Shown: piece after piece, positions 626-59,377 of the stretch | How positions within the stretch are numbered: the stretch's first letter is position 1 | Layout of the letters: each line of letters starts with the position of its first letter | From: Minisyncoccota bacterium | GTDB lineage: Bacteria; Patescibacteriota; Minisyncoccia; Phycocordibacterales; UBA2100 | Direction: 5' to 3' | Assembly (NCBI GenBank): GCA_031291875.1 | Contig: JARLIE010000183.1 | Location: forward strand, 65,356-129,355 | DNA: 64,000 bases | The notes under the pieces: generated by a model | The model's database searches: none | The model's input: only the letters and a program-made list of their open reading frames with translations | Told to the model about the DNA's origin: nothing | Translations under genes and position numbers: made by a program

Positions 626-3600
626 TTACTTTTCACGTTCGTGCGGCGCTCGGAAGAACAGCACCGGGACCAGCACGAGTGTGAGGCAGATCGCGAAGGA
701 AAGTCCGAACATGACCGAATACGCGAGCGGTCCCCAGGTCGCGTTCGAGGCCACGAGCGGCACCATACCGATAACGGTCGTGATGGTTGTGAGGGCAACT
801 GGGCGCAATCGAGTCGCGGCGCTCTCCACGACGATATCGATGACGGGCTTATTCGGTTCTGCAAGGAGGTGTTTGATCATTGAATCCATAAGAATGATCG
901 CGTGGTTGATGATGACGCCGCCGAGCGCAATGATGCCGAGCAACGAAGTGAACGACACTGGCTGCCCCGTCAGCGCGAGGCCGTCCAAAACGCCGATCAA
1001 CGAGAGCGGCACGATCGAAAGCAGGTAGAGCGTATAGCGAATCGAATTGAACGCCACGATGAGGATCATAAACATGAGGATGAGCCCTGCGATGAGCGCG
1101 ATGAACATTTGCTGGAACGACTGGTTGATGTCCTGTGTCTCGCCGCCATAAGAAACGGTAATGCCGGATGGCAGGTTGAGCTGCGGAAGTTCCTTTTGGA
1201 ATTGTGCGACGACCGCTCCCGTCGTCGTTTTATCGTCCGGGTACGCCGAAACCGTTTCGATGCGCTTTTTATCTTTGTGCGCAATGGCCGCGTTGGAAAC
1301 GCCGAGATTTTCGTCGAGCACCTCTCCCAAAAGCACCGGGCCGGAACTGCCTTGAATTGTCAGATTTTCGATACTGTCGAGCGTCGTTTGATTGGTATTC
1401 GACGGATCGGTGTAGTTGGAATTCAAATTGAGCTTCACGATAACGTCGACGTTCTGGTTGGGCTCTGTGATCGAGGTCGCCTTGGTGCCATTGACTGCCG
1501 CTCGGAGCGTCTGAGCGATCGCCTGTGTCGTGAGGCCAAACGCGGCCGCTTTTGCACGATTGATTGAAAGATCAAGCTCAGTGCCGTTATTCTGTGTTGT
1601 CGACGTGATGTTCGTGACATGCGGAATGGTCGAGAGAAGCTGCTGGCCTCGATCGGCAGCGGTGATGAGATCGTTCAAGTTGTCGCCTTCGAATTGAATC
1701 TGGATCGGCGCTCCCGAAGAAGGACCGTTATTGGCTTGCAGCACTTGCACCGTCGCGTCGGTTACCGGAGCGAGACGTCGTTCAAGATCGCTCGCGATTT
1801 GGGTGCTCGTTTTCGAGCGATGGTCGGGTAGGTTGACCGTGATGTTTGCTTGATTGCTACCCGAAGAGCCGCTACCCGTGAGCGATGAGCTCTCGCCGAC
1901 CGTCGTCTCGAACGACGCAACGTCCGGGTCGCCGTAAAGAATCTCTTCGACCTCGCGCGTTGCAAGATCGGTTTCCTGCAACGTCGTCCCCTGCGGCTTT
2001 TGGATGTTGATGTAGACGTAATCTTGGTCGTCCTGCGGGAAGAACGTTGTTTGGATCAACCCGGTAAACGGAAGTGCGAGCGAGAGGATAAGCAGCACGA
2101 TAAGTGTTCGCAAGAATATCTTTTGCGCACGAGTACTCTCCAGCAGGGCTCGTAGTTTCTCCTGGTACCACAGGGTCACGCGATCGGTGTAGTGTTCCTG
2201 GAGTTTTTCGAGGCGGTTCGGCTGTTTCTTAGTGAAAAGGACGGCGATCAAAGGCACGATGCCGAGCGCGACGAAGATTGACGCGATGAGCACGAAAATG
2301 AGCGTATAGGGAATGCCAGCGATGAATTTGCCAATAATACCCGAGATGAAAAAGAGTGGTGCGAATACCGCGACGGTCGCCATCGTTCCTGCAATCAACG
2401 GCCACGCGTAGTCGTTGAGCGCGGCGCGCGCCGCCTGCATTTTGTCGCCATAGATGCGCATTCTGGCGTGTATCGCCTCAGTAACGACGATGCCGGAGTC
2501 GACAAGGATGCCGACTGCAAGAATAAGCGCGAAGAGCGAAATAAAGTTGAGCGTATTACCTGTCGTGTACAAGCCGATGAACGCGATCAAGAACGAGAGC
2601 GGAATCGCGAGTGCAGCGACCAGCGATTCGCGCCAGCCGATTGTTAGCAGAAGCGCGATGATGACCAACAGGACGGTCTCCATGCCCGTCTTCGTCAGCT
2701 CGCCAAGTTGTTTTGAAACTTGTGCGCCCTGGTCTGTCGATGGCGAAACGAATACGGTAAGGCCGTTTAGCGTGGTTTCCTGCAACTTAGTGATCTCTGC
2801 CTTGACCGCATCGTCAGTGCTCTGGATTTGGGCGGTTGATTGCTTATGAATGGTGAGTGTGACCGCCTGCGCGCTCGGCTTGCCGTTGAGGGAAAGGCGC
2901 GAATAGGTACTGGCAGGAGCGAGGCCGTTGGAAATAGTCGCGATGTCGCGCAAATAGATGACGGCGCCGTTTTGCTGCCCGACGGCCACGTCCGCGATCT
3001 GTGCGGGATCGGTGATACCACCTTGAAAGTTAACGTCGTAATTCACGCTGTCCATCGAGATATTACCGGCCGGCAGCGCGGCATTGCTGGCAGAAATCGC
3101 GGAAATTACGCTCGTGAGACTCAATTTATAGAGCTGGAGCGCCTGTTTGTTGACGATCACGTCTACCTCGCGCGGTGGCACGCCTGCCACGTCGACAGCC
3201 GAAACGCCAGGGACGTTCTGGAGGTCGGTTTGCACGGATTGCGCGAGATCCGAGAGTTGGGTCGGCGGCAAATCGCCCGCGATTGAGACGACAAGAATTG
3301 GCTGATCGCTGATGTTGATCTTCGCGACCTGCGGCGTAGTCGCGTCGGCCGGCAAATTCGGTACGGCTTTCGAAACGGCATCACGAAGATCCTGAATCGA
3401 CTGATTGATATCAGCGTTTGCGGTGAATTGTACGGTGATCTCTGAAACTCCCTGGCTTGAATTCGAAGTGATCGTGTCGATATTGGCGAGACCAGAAATC
3501 TGGTCTTCGAGCTTGTCGGTGACAAGCGTTTCCATATCCTCGGCCGAGGCGCCAGGAAGCGTTGCGGTTACGATGCCGTCCGGGATTTCGATGGAGGGCG

Positions 3601-3712
3601 TGTTCTCTTTGGGCATCTGCCACAGTGCATAGAAGCCCGCCACTACCAAGAATGTGACGAGAACGTAGCTGAACTGTTTGCGATCGAGGAAGAAATTCCA
3701 GAGCCAGAGCAT
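626..3712 (-). CDS. RND superfamily efflux transporter (AcrB/HAE-like), 1028 aa
   Basis: 1028-aa 12-TM protein with two large periplasmic loops; overall composition is AcrB-like. Immediately downstream of the adaptor gene. Confidence 0.85.
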   Translation of the reverse strand: MLWLWNFFLDRKQFSYVLVTFLVVAGFYALWQMPKENTPSIEIPDGIVTATLPGASAEDMETLVTDKLEDQISGLANIDTITSNSSQGVSEITVQFTANADINQSIQDLRDAVSKAVPNLPADATTPQVAKINISDQPILVVSIAGDLPPTQLSDLAQSVQTDLQNVPGVSAVDVAGVPPREVDVIVNKQALQLYKLSLTSVISAISASNAALPAGNISMDSVNYDVNFQGGITDPAQIADVAVGQQNGAVIYLRDIATISNGLAPASTYSRLSLNGKPSAQAVTLTIHKQSTAQIQSTDDAVKAEITKLQETTLNGLTVFVSPSTDQGAQVSKQLGELTKTGMETVLLVIIALLLTIGWRESLVAALAIPLSFLIAFIGLYTTGNTLNFISLFALILAVGILVDSGIVVTEAIHARMRIYGDKMQAARAALNDYAWPLIAGTMATVAVFAPLFFISGIIGKFIAGIPYTLIFVLIASIFVALGIVPLIAVLFTKKQPNRLEKLQEHYTDRVTLWYQEKLRALLESTRAQKIFLRTLIVLLILSLALPFTGLIQTTFFPQDDQDYVYINIQKPQGTTLQETDLATREVEEILYGDPDVASFETTVGESSSLTGSGSSGSNQANITVNLPDHRSKTSTQIASDLERRLAPVTDATVQVLQANNGPSSGAPIQIQFEGDNLNDLITAADRGQQLLSTIPHVTNITSTTQNNGTELDLSINRAKAAAFGLTTQAIAQTLRAAVNGTKATSITEPNQNVDVIVKLNLNSNYTDPSNTNQTTLDSIENLTIQGSSGPVLLGEVLDENLGVSNAAIAHKDKKRIETVSAYPDDKTTTGAVVAQFQKELPQLNLPSGITVSYGGETQDINQSFQQMFIALIAGLILMFMILIVAFNSIRYTLYLLSIVPLSLIGVLDGLALTGQPVSFTSLLGIIALGGVIINHAIILMDSMIKHLLAEPNKPVIDIVVESAATRLRPVALTTITTVIGMVPLVASNATWGPLAYSVMFGLSFAICLTLVLVPVLFFRAPHEREK

Positions 3713-3718
3713 ATGGCT

Positions 3719-5332
3719 CTATTGGGAGTCCACGACGATAGTTTCGCCGTCGGAGAGTCCGCGCGCATCGGAAACAATATCCATATCCGGTGTAAGACCA
3801 CTTGTCACCTGGACCTGATCGCCAAGAATGGAGCCAAACACGATCGGCTTCGCGACGAGCGTTGAAGAGCTTACGGTAAAGACGACCGGGCCCGTCGGCG
3901 TTATTTTTGCCGCGACGATTGGGATCGTAATCGCGCTCGAGCTTGCGGTTTGGTTTTGCTGCTGGGCTTGCTCCGCACGGGACAAATCGAGGGTAACCGT
4001 ATCGCCATCCGTGAGCGTGTTTTGACCGCTGGTGATGCCGACTTTTACCTCAATCTCACCCGTTGTCGGATCGATCGCAGGCGCAATAGACGTGACCACG
4101 CCTTGCGCACCGCCCTCGATCGTCGCCTTGCCGCCTACCGCAAGCGTTTTCGCGTCGTCCGGCGTAACGAAAGTATCGATCTCAAGCGCGCCAGGATTCG
4201 AAACTTGCGCGACCTGCGCGAACGATGAAACGAAGTCCCCTCTCGTGACCGGCAAACTTACGATCGTACCTGAGATCGGTGAGCGCACGATGGTTTTTTC
4301 CAAGTTCGCCTTGGCTGCATTCAAAGCACCGAGCGCTTCTTGCACCTGCGCTTGCGCTTGGGCGATGGAATTTTGAGTCCCCGCACCCGCGCTATTGGCA
4401 GCCGTTTGTGACGTAGTTTGCGCCGCGTCGTAAGAATTTTTCGCCGAGGCGATCGCGGCGAGCGCCGCAACGACCTCCGAGCGGCCCGCACCTACTGCGC
4501 TCTGATCTGCGGCGATCGTGGAAGCTGAGATGGTCTGTGACGGTATTGCTTCGTTCGCAGCCTGAACGCAATCGTTGAGGAAAGATGAGACGATTTTCGC
4601 GTCGGCGGTCATTGCGTCGAAACGAGCGTCGATCGACGTACTCGCGCTCGTTTGCGAGATCGCGTCCGAAAGCGTGCCCGTGAGTGAGAAGCGTTCATTC
4701 TGCAAATTCACGGCCAATTGGCTGTCGGGAATAGAAAAAAGAAGCGTCGGTTGTTGCGTCGTGCTTCGGGGATTGGAAAAAAGCTGGTCGGCCTTCGTAT
4801 GCACGGCGTCATCGAGCGACGAATAAGCACTTTGAAGCGAGGCGATTGCCGACGATTCTTCGTTGACAGCGGCTGAAGCTGCTTGTGAGGAGTTGAGCGA
4901 GGAATTTGCGGCCGTTGCACCTTGCGCGTTTTGGAGTGAGGCCACTGCAGCATCGTACGCGCCTTGTGCCTGTTGCACGGCCGCCTGTTCGCTCGCGTTT
5001 GCGAATTCTGCGATAACTTCACCTGCGCCGACGCGATCGCCGATCGCTTTCGAAAGCGAGGTGATTTCGCCAGAGCTTTGCGCCAGAATCGTCGCCTGGT
5101 TGAGGGACGTCACCTTTCCAATGACTGGCAGCGGGCCCGCCTGGGACGAGAGTGTCGCGACAGATTCAAGTTTTACGTGTGGGATCTGGAGCGGCGCGCT
5201 GTCCGTGGCCGACGGTCGCAGCAAATAATGCACGCCAATGGCACCAGCGGCGATAATGATCACCGCTCCCCCGATCGAGTAGAGCCGTGGCAGTGCCAGG
5301 ATATATACAGTAATTTTTTTGATGAAACGCAT
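3719..5332 (-). CDS. RND efflux periplasmic adaptor (membrane fusion protein) with long coiled coil
   Basis: N-terminal TM anchor, long A/Q-rich coiled-coil region, beta-barrel-like C-terminus. Operon partner of the RND pump. Confidence 0.7.
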   Translation of the reverse strand: MRFIKKITVYILALPRLYSIGGAVIIIAAGAIGVHYLLRPSATDSAPLQIPHVKLESVATLSSQAGPLPVIGKVTSLNQATILAQSSGEITSLSKAIGDRVGAGEVIAEFANASEQAAVQQAQGAYDAAVASLQNAQGATAANSSLNSSQAASAAVNEESSAIASLQSAYSSLDDAVHTKADQLFSNPRSTTQQPTLLFSIPDSQLAVNLQNERFSLTGTLSDAISQTSASTSIDARFDAMTADAKIVSSFLNDCVQAANEAIPSQTISASTIAADQSAVGAGRSEVVAALAAIASAKNSYDAAQTTSQTAANSAGAGTQNSIAQAQAQVQEALGALNAAKANLEKTIVRSPISGTIVSLPVTRGDFVSSFAQVAQVSNPGALEIDTFVTPDDAKTLAVGGKATIEGGAQGVVTSIAPAIDPTTGEIEVKVGITSGQNTLTDGDTVTLDLSRAEQAQQQNQTASSSAITIPIVAAKITPTGPVVFTVSSSTLVAKPIVFGSILGDQVQVTSGLTPDMDIVSDARGLSDGETIVVDSQ

Positions 5333-5417
5333 GCAGATTTCTCACTATCATACGCGATAAATCGCTTTTTTTCTACTCGGCACCTCAAAGACGCGCCTTT
5401 TGCATCGGTGTTTTGAG

Positions 5418-5499
5418 TGCCGGGAGAGGGAATCGAACCCTCACACCTTGCGATACACGATTTTGAGTCGTGCGCGTCTACCAATTCCGCCATCCCGGC
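5418..5499 (-). tRNA. tRNA-Leu (anticodon CAA), class II with long variable arm
   Basis: Reverse complement gccgggatggcggaattggtagacgcgcacgactCAAaatcgtg...gagggttcgattccctctcccggca. The 7-bp acceptor pairs, the TPsiC loop is ttcgatt, the anticodon loop is ctCAAaa. Confidence 0.8.
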
Positions 5500-5603
5500 T
5501 TTTGCCCGCAACCGTTTATAGGGCTCGTTCGAAATAATACGGGTTTTTGGCAAATATTCCACCGCATTTGAGATTAGATGATTTTTGTTGTATATTATTT
5601 TTT

Positions 5604-6017
5604 ATGTTACCGCTGGTCTATACCTTCTACCGTTTCGGTCGAAGCACCTGGAAAACATTCCGTGATCCCGAGTTCGAGGTTCTCGCGACGCTCGCCGTCG
5701 TAGTTCTCGGCATTGGCACGTTTGCCTATCACAGCATCGAAGGCTGGGGCTATATCGATTCGCTCTACTTTAGCGTGACGACACTGACCACCGTCGGCTA
5801 CGGAGACCTTGCGCCGCGCACTGAGCTCGGTCGCCTCTTCACTATCCCCTATATTCTCGTCGGTCTCGGTATCTTACTTGGCTTCGTCAACGCGGTTGCG
5901 ATGCACACGATCGAAGACGGTAAGCGCGAGGGCGTTATCATTCCAAAGCGATTCACCTTGCGCCACAAAGCAACCGGTCAAACGGAAGAAGTAGAAGCGG
6001 TCGACGTTGTATCGTGA
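5604..6017 (+). CDS. Small 2-TM potassium channel (KcsA-like); start uncertain (alternative TTG at 5547)
   Basis: Pore helix and selectivity filter SVTTLTTVGYGDLAP are flanked by two TM helices. Confidence 0.65.
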   Translation: MLPLVYTFYRFGRSTWKTFRDPEFEVLATLAVVVLGIGTFAYHSIEGWGYIDSLYFSVTTLTTVGYGDLAPRTELGRLFTIPYILVGLGILLGFVNAVAMHTIEDGKREGVIIPKRFTLRHKATGQTEEVEAVDVVS

Positions 6018-11842: not shown

Positions 11843-11897
11843 GTAAAATATTGTAGCACGGGCGAAAATACGGCATACTGTGCGGGTTCGCGAATAC

Positions 11898-11980
11898 GCG
11901 TCGGTGGCGGAGTGGTCAAACGCACTTGGCTGTAAACCAAGCGGCTTCGGTCTACGCAGGTTCGAATCCTGCCCGGCGCA
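11898..11980 (+). tRNA. tRNA-Tyr (anticodon GTA), class II
   Basis: Acceptor gcgtcgg/ccggcgc (one G-U pair), 3-bp D-stem, anticodon loop ctGTAaa, long variable arm, T-arm gcagg-ttcgaat-cctgc. Followed by the hairpin terminator aaacccgagcatgtctcgggtttt. Confidence 0.75.
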
Positions 11981-12020
11981 CAAAATGCCAAAACCCGAGC
12001 ATGTCTCGGGTTTTGTGCGA

Positions 12021-12137
12021 TTTTGTAGCTGCCGGGCAGGATTCGAAAGACGGAGGCGGGGGTCCCCGCAAGCTTGCGGGGCGCCGAGTCGGGGTCGCGG
12101 AATTTTCTTTGCTGGTAAAGAAAATATCCGTGACCGA
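12021..12137 (+). ncRNA. Unclassified conserved structured element, copy A (second copy at 21703-21822)
   Basis: ttttgtagctg...attcgaaagacggaggcgggggtccccgcaagcttgcggggcgccgagtcggggtcgcggaa...tatccgtgaccga. Shares ~80% identity with copy B, and the differences are compensatory within predicted helices. It starts 41 nt after tRNA-Tyr and no convincing ORF overlaps it. Confidence 0.5.
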
Positions 12138-12194
12138 ATGCTCCCCAAGCAGCGCTAAAAATGAGAATGATACAAATGGAGAGAACTAAAGAAA

Positions 12195-12230
12195 AGCCGC
12201 CTAGCTAAGGGCGGCTAATCTTTTTGTTTT
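12195..12230. terminator. Bidirectional hairpin terminator between element A and the clpB 3-prime end
   Basis: agccgcctagctaagggcggct followed by aatctttttgtttt. Confidence 0.5.
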
Positions 12231-12237
12231 AGAGCGT

Positions 12238-14925
12238 CTATACCCGAGCGGCAGCACGAGCACGCACACTGCGCTCTCGCGCCGGGCCCTTGCGAACGTC
12301 GAACGAAAATTCGTCGTTCTTCCAGTCGACGGAGATCGCTCCCCCTTCGAGGACACCTCGGGCGACCATCATATTGGCGACAGGCGTGAGAATCTTGGTT
12401 TGAATCAAGCGCTTCAAGGGACGTGCGCCGTACTGCGGGTTGTAGCCTTCCTTGGCGAGCTGCTCGATGGAGGCATCGCTGAAGCTGAGTGTGATCTGCT
12501 TTTCTTCGAGACGCTTCGCAACGATGTCGGTCTGCATGCGAACGATATCGAGAATCGCTTCGTGCGAGAGAATATTGAAGAGGATGGTGTCGTCCAGACG
12601 ATTGAGGAATTCCGGACGGAAGTACTCTTTGAGCGAATCGGTGACTTTGTTCTTCACCTGCTCGTAGCGCTCACCTTCCGAAACACTCGCACCGCTTGCG
12701 AATCCCAGACCGGACATCTTGTCGATGTGTTCCGCGCCAATGTTCGAGGTCATGATGATGACACAATTCTTGAAGTTGACTGTGCGGCCCTTGGCGTCTG
12801 TCAGACGGCCATTGTCGAGAACCTGCAGCAAGATATTGAAGACTTCCGGGTGCGCCTTTTCGATTTCATCGAAGAGGATGACCGAGTACGGGCGGTGTCG
12901 CACAAGTTCGGTGAGCCCGCCGCCTTCGTCGTAGCCGACATACCCAGGCGGTGAGCCGATCATCTTCGAAACCGAGTGCTTCTCCATGTATTCGGACATG
13001 TCGACTCGAATGAGCGATTTGTCGCTATTGAAGAGGAATTCCGCAAGTGCGCGGGTGAGCTCCGTCTTGCCGACGCCGGTGGGGCCGAGGAAGAGGAACG
13101 AGCCGACCGGACGATTCGGGTCTGAGATGCCTGCACGAGAGCGCTTGATTGCATCGGAAACTTTCTGCACCGCCTCGTCTTGACCGACAATACGCTTCCT
13201 GAGCTCCTCTTCCATACGGGAAAGTTTCTCCGCTTCTTCTTCGAGCATGCGGGAGACCGGGACACCCGTCCAGCGCGAAACCACGCCGGCGATATCCTCG
13301 GCAGTGATCTCCTCCTTGAGCACGCGCCTCGTAGTTTGGAGCTTCTTCAGACGCTTGGTTGCCGTTTCGATATCTCGTTCCAAATTCGGGATACTCCCGT
13401 AGCGGATTTCAGCGGTCTTGGTTAGATCGCCCATGCTCTCGGCGGTGTCGGCGTCGATACGAGCCTGTTCGAGCTCGCCCTTTGCCTTCTTGATCTCGGC
13501 GAGGGTCTCCTTCTCATTCTTCCATTTCATTTCGAGCTCGCGGGTGGAGTCGCGCAAGTCGGCGATCTCCTTTTCGATCGATTGTACGCGCGTCAAAGCC
13601 TTCTCGACACCTTCGTCGGCTTCTTTCTTGAGTGCTTCCTTTTCAATCTCCAAGCGAGTGATTTGGCGGTGGGCATCTTCGAGTTGCGGTGGCATATTCT
13701 CGAGCGAGAGGCGGAGCGCAGAAGCGGCTTCGTCGATAAGGTCGATCGCTTTGTCCGGCAAAAAACGCTCCGTGATGTAGCGAGAGGAAAGCTGAACCGC
13801 CGAAACCATCGCGTCGTCAGTGATATGTACGCCGTGGTAGAGCTCGTAGCGCTCCTTGAGGCCGCGCAAAATAGCGACCGCGTCTTCGATTGAGGGTTCG
13901 TTTACGTAGACCGGCTGGAAGCGGCGCGTGAGCGCTGCATCGTGCTCGATGTGCTTTTGATATTCCTTGAGGGTGGTCGCGCCGATGACGCGGATCTCGC
14001 CACGCGCGAGCGCAGGCTTCAGCATATTGGATGCGTCCATAGAGCCTTCAGCGGCTCCGGCGCCAACGAGCGTGTGGATTTCGTCGATAAAGAGGATGAT
14101 CTTGCCTTCCGAGCGTTCGACTTCGCGCATAACAGCCTTGAGTCGCTCTTCGAACTCGCCGCGATACTTTGTACCGGCGATGAGGAGGCCGAGGTCGAGC
14201 TGCACGAGCTCTTTGCCACGCAATGACTCAGGAACGTCGCCCGCTGCCATTCTCGAGGCGAGACCTTCCGCGACGGCCGTCTTACCGACGCCAGCTTCTC
14301 CGATCAAGATCGGGTTGTTCTTGGTGCGTCTGGAGAGAATCTGAATGACGCGTGTAATTTCGGTATCACGACCGATAACCGGGTCGAGCTTGTTCTCGCG
14401 GGCGCGTTCGGTAAGGGAGCGCGCGAAGCGCGCGAGGGCTCGCGGTTTCGAAGAAGATTCCGCGTCGCGGATCTTCCCCTCTTTGATGTCGGTGAGAATG
14501 CGCGCGAGCGCAGTGCGGTCGATGCGGTAGCGAGCAAGCAGTTCTGAAGCCGGGCCCGGGTGTTCCGCAACCGCAAGCAGCAAGTGCTCGGGAGATACAA
14601 ACTGATCATTGAACGACGCCGAAATTCTCGGAGCCGCCTCGAACACGCGGACCAATTCCGGCGTTAGGTAGAGCTGAAAACTCGGAGAAACTGCCGTCGC
14701 GCCGCTTGATCCTTCGATCATTTCGAGTACGGAATCTGTCAGATGCGCGGTGTCGACCTCGACTTGTTCGAGCATCGGCAACACCATCGACTCCTCTTGC
14801 ATGAGGAGCGCCGCCAAAAGATGCAGCGTCGACACCTGATTATGGCCGCGTTCGACAGCAAGTTGATGCGCGCGATGCACGGCCTCTTTTGCCTTCGTTG
14901 TGTAGTTGTTGAAAGGGGTTGCCAT
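12238..14925 (-). CDS. clpB: ATP-dependent chaperone ClpB (895 aa)
   Basis: Two AAA+ modules with Walker A motifs GEAGVGKT and GPTGVGKT, a long middle coiled coil, and the N-terminal Clp_N repeat [16 protein letters not shown]. Confidence 0.9.
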
Positions 14926-21579: not shown

Positions 21580-21661
21580 GCTGGGGTGGCGAAATTGGTA
21601 GACGCACTAGGCTTAGGACCTAGCTCCGCAAGGAATGAGAGTTCGAGTCTCTCCCCCAGCA
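21580..21661 (+). tRNA. tRNA-Leu (anticodon TAG), class II
   Basis: gctggggtggcgaaattggtagacgcactaggctTAGgacctag + variable arm + gagagttcgagtctctc + ccccagca. Confidence 0.8.
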
Positions 21662-21702
21662 CAAAAATAAGGAGACCGACGCATGTCGTCGGACGACTAT
21701 AT

Positions 21703-21822
21703 TTTTGTAACTGCGGGGAGAGGCTCGAAAGCCGGAGCCGGGGGTCCCCGCAAGCTTGCGGGGCGGCGAGGCGGGGTCGCGGAAATTTCAGAGCGACGGC
21801 GACGAAATTATCCGTGACCGAG
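21703..21822 (+). ncRNA. Unclassified conserved structured element, copy B (paralog of 12021-12137)
   Basis: Starts 41 nt after tRNA-Leu(TAG) behind a hairpin. The core ccgggggtccccgcaagcttgcggggcggcgaggcggggtcgcggaa...tatccgtgaccga is conserved, with compensatory substitutions relative to copy A. Confidence 0.5.
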
Positions 21823-21838
21823 TCTGTCTATCAAAAAA

Positions 21839-53725: not shown

Positions 53726-53821
53726 TCGCTCATGCGGAAGTCTCTCGCAAGAGCGACTTTCGTTTTGTGTTTCGAATATCCATTTGAACCATGCGAGATG
53801 TCTCGGACGGCAATGCATCGG

Positions 53822-53900
53822 CATACGTCCGATACTAAATATTCAGGGCGGGCCGTACGCAGTTAGTATCCTCTGCTCCTAGCCCCATAAGGATATTTTA
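53822..53900 (+). repeat. Dispersed repeat family member R2 (core CATACGTCCGATACTAAAT + GGGCGGGCCGTACGCAGTTAGTA..CCCCATAAGG)
   Basis: The 19-nt core is shared with R3 and R4; the downstream ~60 nt is homologous to R1. Confidence 0.4.
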
Positions 53901-54386: not shown

Positions 54387-54470
54387 CATTTAAACATGCC
54401 AACCCACGTGTCCAATCTTTTAACCCGTCTGGTCTTCGGACCTCTGACGGGTTTCTTTTTTACCCGTCAA

Positions 54471-54535
54471 CATACCTCCGATACTAAATGCTTATGGCGG
54501 GGTCTAAGGGATTCTCACCCGTCAACAGCGCCTCG
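54471..54535 (+). repeat. Dispersed repeat family member R3 (core CATACCTCCGATACTAAAT + GGCGGGG)
   Basis: Core identical to R4; the partner TCGGAGG lies downstream. Confidence 0.4.
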
Positions 54536-55780: not shown

Positions 55781-55869
55781 TTAGTTGAATACTATACGCG
55801 TAGGTGTGACGTGTCAACGTCTCACCCTTATAGACCGTCCGCAACTCATCGGAGGGGTCTAGCCCTCGG

Positions 55870-55900
55870 CATACCTCCGATACTAAATACTTTGGGCGGA
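55870..55900 (+). repeat. Dispersed repeat family member R4 (core CATACCTCCGATACTAAAT + GGGCGGAG)
   Basis: Preceded by the complementary TCGGAGG about 20 nt upstream, forming a hairpin that covaries with R2 (TCGGACG/CGTCCGA). Confidence 0.4.
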
Positions 55901-59313: not shown

Positions 59314-59377
59314 GGTGTGAATGGACACCATTCACACCTAAATTAAGTAAAGCCTGTGAATGGTGCCCATTCACAGG
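59314..59377. repeat. Two tandem near-identical 25-bp palindromes (GGTGTGAATGGacaCCATTCACACC; CCTGTGAATGGtgcCCATTCACAGG)
   Basis: Perfect 11-bp arms around 3-nt centres, 39 bp apart, located between the stop of the giant gene (59378) and the lemA start. Confidence 0.5.

Follow-up and report, generated by a model that had tools for sequence, protein, structure and literature searches.

Putative site-specific, protein-less insertion elements behind tRNA genes of Patescibacteria

The 64,000-nt stretch of Minisyncoccota contig JARLIE010000183.1 analysed here (the window) contains two related sequences, copy A behind the tRNA-Tyr(GTA) gene and copy B behind the tRNA-Leu(TAG) gene, which an earlier sequence-only reading had described as a duplicated structured RNA. 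We interpret both, with a probability of about 0.6, as members of a family of site-specific, protein-less insertion elements of about 110–200 nt, which occurs in Patescibacteria (candidate phyla radiation, CPR) and Elusimicrobia. That they are mobile at all, and that their single-stranded fold is functional, appears quite likely. We observed the anatomy of the elements, their presence or absence in relatives, the range of their targets, the covariation and strand specificity of their fold and the lack of a linked enzyme gene directly in the genomes; the mechanism proposed below would be a model drawn from these comparisons.

Anatomy of the two copies

Copies A (12021-12137) and B (21703-21822) were found where the sequence-only reading had placed them, being 86% identical over an ungapped 87 nt (repeat family D1) and sharing the core 26-mer GGGGGTCCCCGCAAGCTTGCGGGGCG, which has exactly these two exact occurrences against 0 expected. 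The 3' ends of tRNA-Tyr(GTA) at 11980/81 and tRNA-Leu(TAG) at 21661/62 agree with the reported gap of about 41 nt before each copy. Covariance model R1 (see below), built from copies in other genomes, matched only A and B in the window, scoring about 60 bits with default filters and 43–44 bits with the filters off, while the next match stayed below 10 bits.

The first ~27 nt of each copy are the reverse complement of its own tRNA, covering the T-loop, the 3' strands of T-stem and acceptor stem, and the trailer. In copy A, positions 11961-11977 pair with 12031-12047 at 17 of 17 positions (inverted repeat I7), and the arm of copy B is complementary to tRNA-Leu(TAG), one of the pairs being U·G. 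The 3' third of the tRNA, the hairpin in the apparent spacer (with the apical loop CATGT common to A and B) and the arm fold into one hairpin of ~45 bp with z-scores of -9.7 (A) and -5.8 (B). The fixed 41-nt spacing is not a processing distance, as had been proposed, but is made up of the long hairpin, which belongs to the element and has a 3' arm complementary to the end of the tRNA. The ~117-nt unit described before was also too short, since the real one extends from the tRNA T-loop (11961 in A, 21642 in B) to a terminal ...GTGAC (12134 and 21818).

The other part of the earlier proposal, co-transcription with the tRNA, is plausible, with no promoter-like site found between tRNA and element. 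Copy A is followed by a terminator-like hairpin at 12195-12216, which acts on the plus strand and is the likely end of the transcript of tRNA-Tyr and element. The inner hairpin of copy A scored as a terminator on the minus strand only, the plus strand continuing with TTTTGTG, and the corresponding region of copy B yielded only one weak plus-strand candidate of 5 bp.

The long hairpin is followed by a module of two hairpins, P2 and P3, which we call module D (Table 1). It contains the compensatory changes that had been noticed between the copies, GAC/GTC in A to GCC/GGC in B and GGCG/CGCC to GCCG/CGGC, as well as the distal helix GTCGCGGA/TCCGTGAC with its one G·U pair and distal stems which are unlike in sequence and self-pairing in both copies.

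Presence and absence of the element in related genomes

By its flanking ClpB gene, the window belongs to Candidatus Kaiserbacteria/Paceibacteria of the CPR. Syntenic loci from relatives (numbered L001 and so on) were fetched, and ClpB identity served as the measure of relatedness. The tRNA-Tyr gene carries an element in the window and in L125 (89% identity), whereas the site is empty in L124, L001 and L002 (92%, 93% and 90%), where it reads GCGCACCA with CCA encoded. L003 (87%) likewise contains a tRNA-Tyr gene without an element, yet CCA is not encoded there. The element-bearing tRNA-Tyr gene of the window (11976-11986) has lost its encoded CCA, reading GCGCA↓CAAAAT in comparison to GCGCACCA in the empty sites (L124 5445-5460, L002). 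A small open reading frame (ORF) lies directly 3' of the empty tRNA-Tyr gene in L124 and L002, and this 54-aa ORF is missing from the window.

The tRNA-Leu(TAG) site is empty in L001 and L002, and L003 shows a scar of the form ...CGTGAC↓CGAGTCTC. In L003 and L004, this scar lies 3' of tRNA-Leu(TAG) at ~2860-2907 (minus strand) and reads ..CCCACACTAA CGTGAC CGAGTCTCAGTGG, representing the last six bases of module D and the displaced copy of the tRNA T-loop, with the intervening sequence deleted. L001 carries copies behind tRNA-Leu(CAA), tRNA-Trp and tRNA-Lys instead. Behind the ...GTGAC of these fresh copies, the last 19 nt of the tRNA, starting at C56, are repeated exactly and in direct orientation, and fresh copies elsewhere show exact repeats of 17–30 nt in the place of the decayed tail of copy A. 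While this downstream repeat is decayed in both window copies, the relatives identify it as the displaced original tail, after which native sequence continues. Therefore, we regard the element as an insertion which supplies a functional tRNA tail. Because it is absent from orthologous sites, accompanied by direct repeats of the target and found in tandem copies, the choice of a functional RNA over a DNA-level repeat, made in the sequence-only reading, is not supported: the helices are indeed real, covarying and strand-specific, but the element is a mobile insertion as well.

At the tRNA-Leu(CAA) gene of the window (5417-5499), a palindrome GGCACTCAAAACACCG...GTCTTTGAGGTGCCGAG lies 3' of the gene at ~5372-5416 (minus strand) with no module D after it. 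The right arm of this palindrome can pair with trailer and 3' end of the tRNA, and the trailer resembles that of the tRNA-Leu(CAA) copy in L001. The palindrome thus has the look of a long hairpin left behind by a lost element.

Fold, covariation and strand of module D

To define the conserved part of the family, 42 short-form copies were aligned and converted into model R1, the matches of which gave an alignment of 122 rows with 121 distinct copies. The structure was scored for P1, P2 outer, P2 inner and P3 against 500 shuffles and against structures slid along the alignment. Among the distinct copies, 95.8% of the paired cells were able to pair (76.7% in shuffles), 468 cells were changed on both sides (119 in shuffles), and the covariation score was 0.488, compared to 0.145 in shuffles and at most 0.11 in the slid controls; none of the 500 shuffles reached the observed pairing and covariation values. 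The helices proposed from two copies thus hold with strong covariation throughout the family. In the outer helix of P2, all four Watson-Crick types occur at the middle pair. One pair of P3 is G·U in 120 of 120 copies, and the pair two positions further up is GU in 59, GC in 56 and AU in 5. In 17 copies outside the selection by the search pattern, conservation extends to the internal loop NNA/GA, the GG junction and the bulged A, and positions A12, G86 and A87 of P2 are invariant, again including copies outside that selection.

The top strand folds more stably than its complement in 113 of 113 modules, and isolated mismatches in the long hairpins are wobble-compatible more often on the top strand (19) than on the bottom strand (6, p = 0.015). 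Because of this stability and wobble bias, the fold is one that works as a single strand of tRNA-sense polarity. A minus-strand RNA with a tRNA-like 3' end was rejected as a candidate, since the conserved G·U would turn into A·C mismatches and the fold is worse in 113/113 cases. A kissing interaction between the hairpin loop CUGC and a P3 loop GCAG was also considered, but on inspection the two loops did not occur together consistently. RNA as the active form, to which we give about even odds, is favoured by the transcriptional context, the conservation of purine-rich loops and the GC/GU/AU series; single-stranded DNA (ssDNA) is retained as a somewhat less probable form because the variable stems are almost free of G·U and the element is mobile.

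Distribution and target genes

One genome per species was scanned with the pattern CGAGNCGGGGTCGCGNAN{14,40}TNYGTGAC, yielding at least 119 loci, nearly all in Patescibacteria and several in Elusimicrobia, among which one or two are clear chance matches. A search with the covariance model added further, more divergent copies inside the same 8-kb loci, and tandem units are frequent. Of the copies in the listed loci, 66 are located at most 200 nt 3' of a tRNA gene on their own strand. Because these tRNAs belong to 18 isotypes, the class II tRNAs emphasized before are incidental. Among the 126 pattern matches in the fetched loci, any copy with an identifiable same-strand upstream tRNA is less than 500 nt away from it.

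Other copies lie behind tmRNA genes, which were confirmed by Rfam in six loci, or within the last ~25 codons of the topoisomerase I gene. In the latter, the left copy keeps the frame up to the stop codon (...KTIPERCSNKSCANHNPHKREKK, stop), and the copy after module D is a diverged homologue (...KTIPERCSNKTCPNHN). Such insertions were seen ~25 codons before the stop in L014 (~3650-3900), L019 and L048, and also in L066, L104 and L108; the element brings a replacement C-terminal coding segment, with the diverged copy of the segment standing after it.

Some copies adjoin intact 5S rRNA genes in either orientation, as in L006 (838-1048), L013 (3691-3892), L026 (1935-2140), L099 (4109-4331) and L082 (~4400-4570), where four are antisense and one is sense. 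Some of them are flanked by fragments of a second 5S gene (positions ~20-34 and ~35-70), which does not fit a simple model of the tRNA type. Insertion inside 5S rRNA was rejected, as the genes beside the copies are intact and the flanking sequences are no more than 5S-like fragments. According to a published survey, CPR 5S genes have no insertions of 100 bp or longer (PMC11270868).

A stand-alone form of the order GGUGAG-hairpin-GCAAG-P2-GGGG-P3 occurs in Elusimicrobia (L007, L008, L017, L058, L071, L090 and L096) and in some CPR loci (L055, L059, L082, L099 and L112) and may be an ancestral or free RNA form. It has no obvious target repeat, and its Elusimicrobia versions have a conserved P3 tip, AAACCGCUAUGCGGUUU. 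Another tip, GCGACGGC, with a C-GACG-G loop, recurs on both P2 and P3 in many loci (e.g., L006, L051 and L073), and longer versions add a stem; this suggests a modular, possibly protein-binding, loop motif.

Arms, target repeats and junctions

In the 66 tRNA-linked copies, the longest exact match of the arm to its own tRNA has a median of 8 nt, compared to a mean of 4.6 nt after shuffling; 34 copies reach at least 8 nt and 16 at least 10 nt. The arm follows its target even where the tRNA has changed: the tRNA-Tyr gene of L125 has the T-stem CCCTC in place of CCTGC, and the arm GCCGGGAGGGATTCGAA matches it again at 17 of 17 positions, although the module D behind this perfect long hairpin is degenerate (15.9 bits). 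Copy B and the tRNA-Leu(CAA) copy of L001 have trailer and loop in common, and their arms differ exactly where the two tRNAs differ. The differing trailers of A and B had suggested that the right arm is copied from the local flank at each insertion, an idea weakened by the trailer shared between B and the L001 copy; from this comparison, the trailer would seem to be a modular part carried by the element itself.

After module D, the direct repeat of target sequence reaches at least 12 nt in 25 and at least 17 nt in 19 of the 66 copies, with a variable length of 9–33 nt. The terminal ...GTGAC always stands directly before the first base of the arm-pairable sequence, giving junctions such as GTGAC↓CGA.., GTGAC↓CACAAA.. 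and GTGAC↓CAAAAACG. At the junction, the target reads CGAxTCC in T-loops, CCA/CACAAA where tRNAs end and, for topoisomerase I, CAAAAACGA, and the target-side bases before the junction vary (GGTT, GGGT, GGCG, GGGA). Because the arms match the targets and the GTGAC joint is constant while the preceding bases vary, we infer that pairing rather than a fixed recognition sequence sets the site.

Searches for known families and linked enzymes

The sequence-only reading had matched the copies to none of tmRNA, SRP RNA, RNase P, 6S RNA and common riboswitches, and in agreement with this, only tRNAs reached the gathering score of Rfam 15 in the window. Even at E <= 10, the region 11850-12250 gave only scattered chance matches, and Rfam searches of 23 related loci found nothing on module D. 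For group II introns (Intron_gpII, RF00029), there was no match at E <= 10 in 11850-12250 or at E <= 0.5 in the related loci. Known ribozyme families gave no Rfam match either, even at E <= 10; the hammerhead core CUGANGA is absent, and the element junctions, AAA/AAG and GGG, are unlike it. Full-text searches of the literature turned up no description of the element. The nearest papers on Patescibacteria deal with group I introns at tRNA position 35/36 (PMC13011429) and insertions in rRNA (PMC11270868). An intron in the T-loop (group I or archaeal bulge-helix-bulge type) was rejected because the tRNA gene upstream needs no splicing to be complete, while the exon-like copy downstream is decaying; the tRNA introns published for Patescibacteria sit at position 35/36 (PMC13011429).

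We then looked for a linked enzyme gene. All-against-all clustering of the 847 ORFs within 3.5 kb of 124 copies returned only housekeeping genes as recurrent neighbours (SmpB, FtsH, IF-2, RbfA and topoisomerase I) and no recombinase, integrase, transposase or reverse transcriptase among them. A Pfam scan of 40 window ORFs, 36 of which matched a family, found no recombinase, transposase, reverse transcriptase or HUH protein, and genes for tnpB, iscB or DEDD recombinases were found neither among the neighbours of the copies nor among the scanned window ORFs. The element pattern had 0 matches in 2.9 million viral contigs. Because clustering, ORF scan and viral contigs gave no linked enzyme, we conclude that the elements are non-autonomous and, with Rfam 15 and the literature taken together, that they are a previously undescribed family of non-autonomous integrative elements.

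Proposed mechanism and alternative explanations

Read on the sense strand of the target, an integrated unit consists of a working duplicate of the 3' part of the target gene (T-loop to discriminator in A and B) and a trailer, a hairpin with the conserved apical loop, the arm complementary to trailer and target 3' portion, the whole forming one long hairpin, and then module D (P2 with the NNA/GA loop, GGG, P3 with the invariant G·U and bulged A, and the end ...GUGAC); the displaced original 3' end of the target comes last and decays afterwards. Module D would serve as the constant handle, read as top-strand RNA or ssDNA by an enzyme acting in trans, unless D itself is catalytic. The variable arms, which both copy and complement the target, would specify the place of joining, and the 3' end of D would be joined to the first base of the arm-pairable sequence. 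A hairpin used in this way, with a target copy paired to its complement, would be comparable to the folded attC and CTXphi sites or to the guide pairing of introns and bridge RNAs. The element would then be transcribed from the promoter of its target, and the insertion would be harmless because the element supplies a working gene tail.

We hold the step in which arm-to-target pairing directs integration only tentatively, with the odds somewhat against it. A programmable, nucleic-acid-guided insertion, in which D is the catalyst or its recruiter and pairing of the arm 3' of the joint dictates the site, must be called rather unlikely. The same doubt applies to its consequence that one machinery could put a ~150-nt cassette into any gene tail and rebuild that tail with no enzyme in cis; such a system may be active as ssDNA or as a small RNA circle.

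Several points weigh against interpreting the copies as site-specific insertion elements. The case for movement is drawn entirely from comparative genomics, the target-matched arms could be co-inherited with the element instead of guiding it, and homologous recombination suffices to spread existing insertions among relatives. Some copies have no obvious arm or repeat, namely those of the stand-alone GGUGAG-hairpin-GCAAG type and those next to 5S genes. Because the sample was picked by a strict sequence pattern, conservation in the patterned columns is partly circular, which is mitigated by the 17 copies found by the model only. Finally, the variable helices are nearly devoid of G·U pairs, contrary to what is usual in an RNA that has long been under selection.

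Among the alternatives, each of which fails at least one defining feature that we tested, a structured small RNA or cis-acting 3' module which benefits the host (by processing, stability or termination) and is co-transcribed with the tRNA, close to the functional RNA of the sequence-only reading, survives best, though we consider it unlikely. Patchiness would then reflect gain and loss, not transposition. It would account well for the RNA-like covariation with its GC/GU/AU series and conserved unpaired bases, the missing promoter between tRNA and D, the terminator after copy A, the perfect long hairpin of the L125 tRNA-Tyr gene in spite of its degenerate D, and the persistence of a hairpin remnant without D at the tRNA-Leu(CAA) gene of the window. 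However, the same tRNAs work without the element in close relatives, copies stand behind any tRNA or tmRNA, inside a protein gene and in tandem, target duplications follow the element, and a hairpin sequestering the tRNA's own 3' third is difficult to square with a role in aiding its maturation.

More remote is a circular or multimeric RNA replicon or retro-element, in which D and the arm-target helix form a new self-cleaving or ligating ribozyme acting at GUGAC↓N and insertions arise by reverse transcription as in retrozymes. The layout of a three-way junction (P1 of any sequence, P2, P3) with ~10 conserved unpaired nucleotides, the invariant G·U, the bulged A 8 nt from the 3' end of the element, the tandem units with 12-nt palindromic spacers and the sense transcription of all clear targets would suit such a ribozyme, but no ribozyme family matched at E <= 10, CUGANGA is missing, no reverse transcriptase occurs among the neighbours, and four of the 5S-adjacent copies are antisense. 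The reported absence of group II introns from Patescibacteria (PMC13011429) also counts against it. In resemblance to group II introns, insertion takes place beside a helix between element and target (the pairing of exon- and intron-binding sites, EBS/IBS, in the intron), and the final hairpin, with its A bulged out 8 nt before the terminal ...AC, recalls the bulged A of domain VI and the 3' AY; the stand-alone form starts with GGUGAG, having A and not Y of the intron's 5' GUGYG. Unlike these introns, the element lacks an Intron_gpII match (domains V/VI), domain I and an intron-encoded protein, is 5–10 times smaller and carries a copy of the 3' exon, and its host gene is functional unspliced.

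TnpB/IscB and IS110/IS1111 systems are programmable by guide RNAs, so the copies might represent orphan omega RNAs or bridge/seek RNAs with D as the scaffold and the flanking target and arm as the guide. We rate this slightly lower still: a constant structured scaffold does abut variable target-matched sequence on both sides, but there is no tnpB, iscB or DEDD-recombinase gene near the copies, no Rfam match to HEARO or the IS605 type and no constant target-adjacent motif at the junctions, and those elements come without a replacement gene tail or a target duplication of 15–30 nt. The palindrome-associated transposable elements (PATE) of the IS200/IS605 group and the omega RNAs of TnpB/IscB differ from our element in the same respects, since it has no linked tnpA, tnpB or iscB and no constant target-adjacent motif, and it does have target duplications.

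The least probable alternative, att-site scars left by integrase islands or prophages at tRNA and tmRNA genes with D as the arm-type protein-binding region of attP, would explain the direct repeats of tRNA/tmRNA 3' ends, the replacement gene tail and the classic tyrosine-integrase sublocations in T-loop and 3' end, but it conflicts with the vicinity of the upstream tRNA (within 500 nt for every copy among the 126 matches in which a same-strand one is identifiable), the lack of an integrase among recurrent neighbours, the 0 matches in viral contigs, the use of one D for dozens of unlike targets, and compensatory changes with a strand-specific G·U, which double-stranded protein-binding sites would not give.

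Comparison of the proposed insertion elements with known mobile elements

Islands and prophages at tRNA/tmRNA genes nevertheless share with the proposed insertion elements the insertion into the T-loop or 3' end, the replacement 3' end, the displaced original as a direct repeat, and tandem occupancy. Unlike them, the element measures 100–200 nt instead of kilobases (inserts are shorter than 500 nt wherever both ends are identifiable), contains no integrase or other gene, uses one constant module for at least 18 tRNA isotypes and protein genes, and carries an inverted copy of its target.

The attC sites of integrons and the attP hairpin of CTXphi are alike in being imperfect, strand-specific hairpins with conserved bulges or mismatches and free stem sequence. 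They also share the assembly of both arms at one end of the insert, a crossover sequence repeated at both ends, and the possibility of small non-coding inserts served by an enzyme in trans. The element shows a strand-specific fold with a conserved bulge and a G·T(U) pair. It differs in lacking R''/R' boxes (RYYYAAC/GTTRRRY) at the hairpin base, which copies the target instead, in the joint GTGAC↓N rather than G↓TT, in targeting gene tails and not attI or dif, in its extra two-hairpin module and in having no integrase among its neighbours.

Miniature inverted-repeat transposable elements (MITEs) and hairpins of repetitive extragenic palindrome (REP) doublets (REPINs), such as Correia, RUP and the REP doublets mobilised by RAYT, are likewise short, non-coding, multi-copy hairpins located at 3' ends of transcription units, co-transcribed with them and mobilised in trans. 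The arms of our element are locus-specific and pair with the target instead of forming a family-wide terminal inverted repeat, its target repeat varies between 15 and 33 nt and is not a fixed target-site duplication, covariation of the RNA type takes the place of sequence identity in its conserved part, and no parent insertion sequence or RAYT was identified.

If the arms set the insertion site, the elements would be a very compact, retargetable integration device that mends its target gene upon entry, which would interest both genome engineers and students of mobile elements. The family would add a widespread structured nucleic acid, present in at least 119 species genomes and often in several copies per 8 kb, to the almost unexplored non-coding repertoire of CPR bacteria. 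It would also explain the lost encoded CCA and odd trailers of some CPR tRNA genes. For annotation, repeated tRNA 3' fragments and long palindromes behind CPR tRNA, tmRNA or 5S genes should be regarded as element-derived.

Features of the window and minor observations

Table 1. Positions of copies A and B, their parts and adjoining features in the window
Feature	Position	Strand	Remarks
tRNA-Tyr(GTA), target gene of copy A	11898..11980	+	ARAGORN; Rfam tRNA 63.8 bits; CCA not encoded (..GGCGCA↓CAAAAT)
Copy A, long hairpin	11961..12047	+	Inverted repeat I7; arms paired with hardly a break in the minimum free energy fold of 11898-12140 (z = -9.7)
Copy A, left arm of long hairpin	11961-11999	+	tRNA T-loop, 3' end and trailer; apical loop CATGT at 12000-12004
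Copy A, right arm of long hairpin	12005-12047	+	Complement of trailer and anti-tRNA arm; exact 17-nt complement GCCGGGCAGGATTCGAA at 12031-12047
Copy A, P2	12049..12090	+	From sequence; outer helix GAC/GTC, 12049-51 with 12088-90
Copy A, P2 internal loop GGA/GA	12052-54 and 12086-87	+	Inner helix GGCG/CGCC, bulge GGGGT
Copy A, P2 apical hairpin CCCCGCAAGCTTGCGGGG	12064-12081	+	
Copy A, junction GGG (12091-93) and P3	12091..12134	+	Match of model R1; end ...GTGAC at 12134
Copy A, P3 lower helix GTCGCGGA/TCCGTGAC	12094-12101 with 12127-12134	+	G12097·T12131 wobble, bulged A 12126, AU-rich upper stem
Decayed direct copy of tRNA-Tyr 3' end and element-type trailer (CGAATGCTCCCCAAGCAGCGCTA...)	12135..12157	+	Displaced older target copy
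Bidirectional terminator-like hairpin	12195..12216	both	Between copy A and the convergent ClpB gene
tRNA-Leu(TAG), target gene of copy B	21580..21661	+	ARAGORN, Rfam
Copy B, long hairpin	21642..21729	+	Left arm: T-loop, 3' end and trailer
Copy B, inner hairpin	21676-21692	+	Loop CATGT 21682-86
Copy B, anti-tRNA arm	21703-21729	+	
Copy B, module D	21731..21818	+	
Copy B, P2	21731-21772	+	GCC/GGC, GGA/GA, GCCG/CGGC, apical hairpin as in A
Copy B, junction GGG	21773-75	+	
Copy B, P3	21776-21818	+	G21779·T21815, bulged A 21810
Decayed, part-deleted original tRNA-Leu(TAG) 3' end (CGAGTCTGTCTATCAAAAAAT)	21819..21836	+	Comparison with L002 and L003; native pilin-like gene follows

Beside or overlapping a tRNA-Cys gene, the Kaiserbacteria locus L004 contains a LAGLIDADG-like ORF (5103-5831) with a weak Pfam match, which is missing from the gene calls of the near-identical record L003. 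Elsewhere in the window, three direct repeats of ~40 nt (..CATACCTCCGATACTAAATACTT..GGCGG; family D2) lie in a stretch of lower GC content at 53812-53851, 54461-54500 and 55860-55899. Two near-identical palindromes of 21 nt (TGTGAATGGACACCATTCACA and TGTGAATGGTGCCCATTCACA; pair I3) occur 18 nt apart at 59316-59375, an arrangement that looks like a pair of operator sites.

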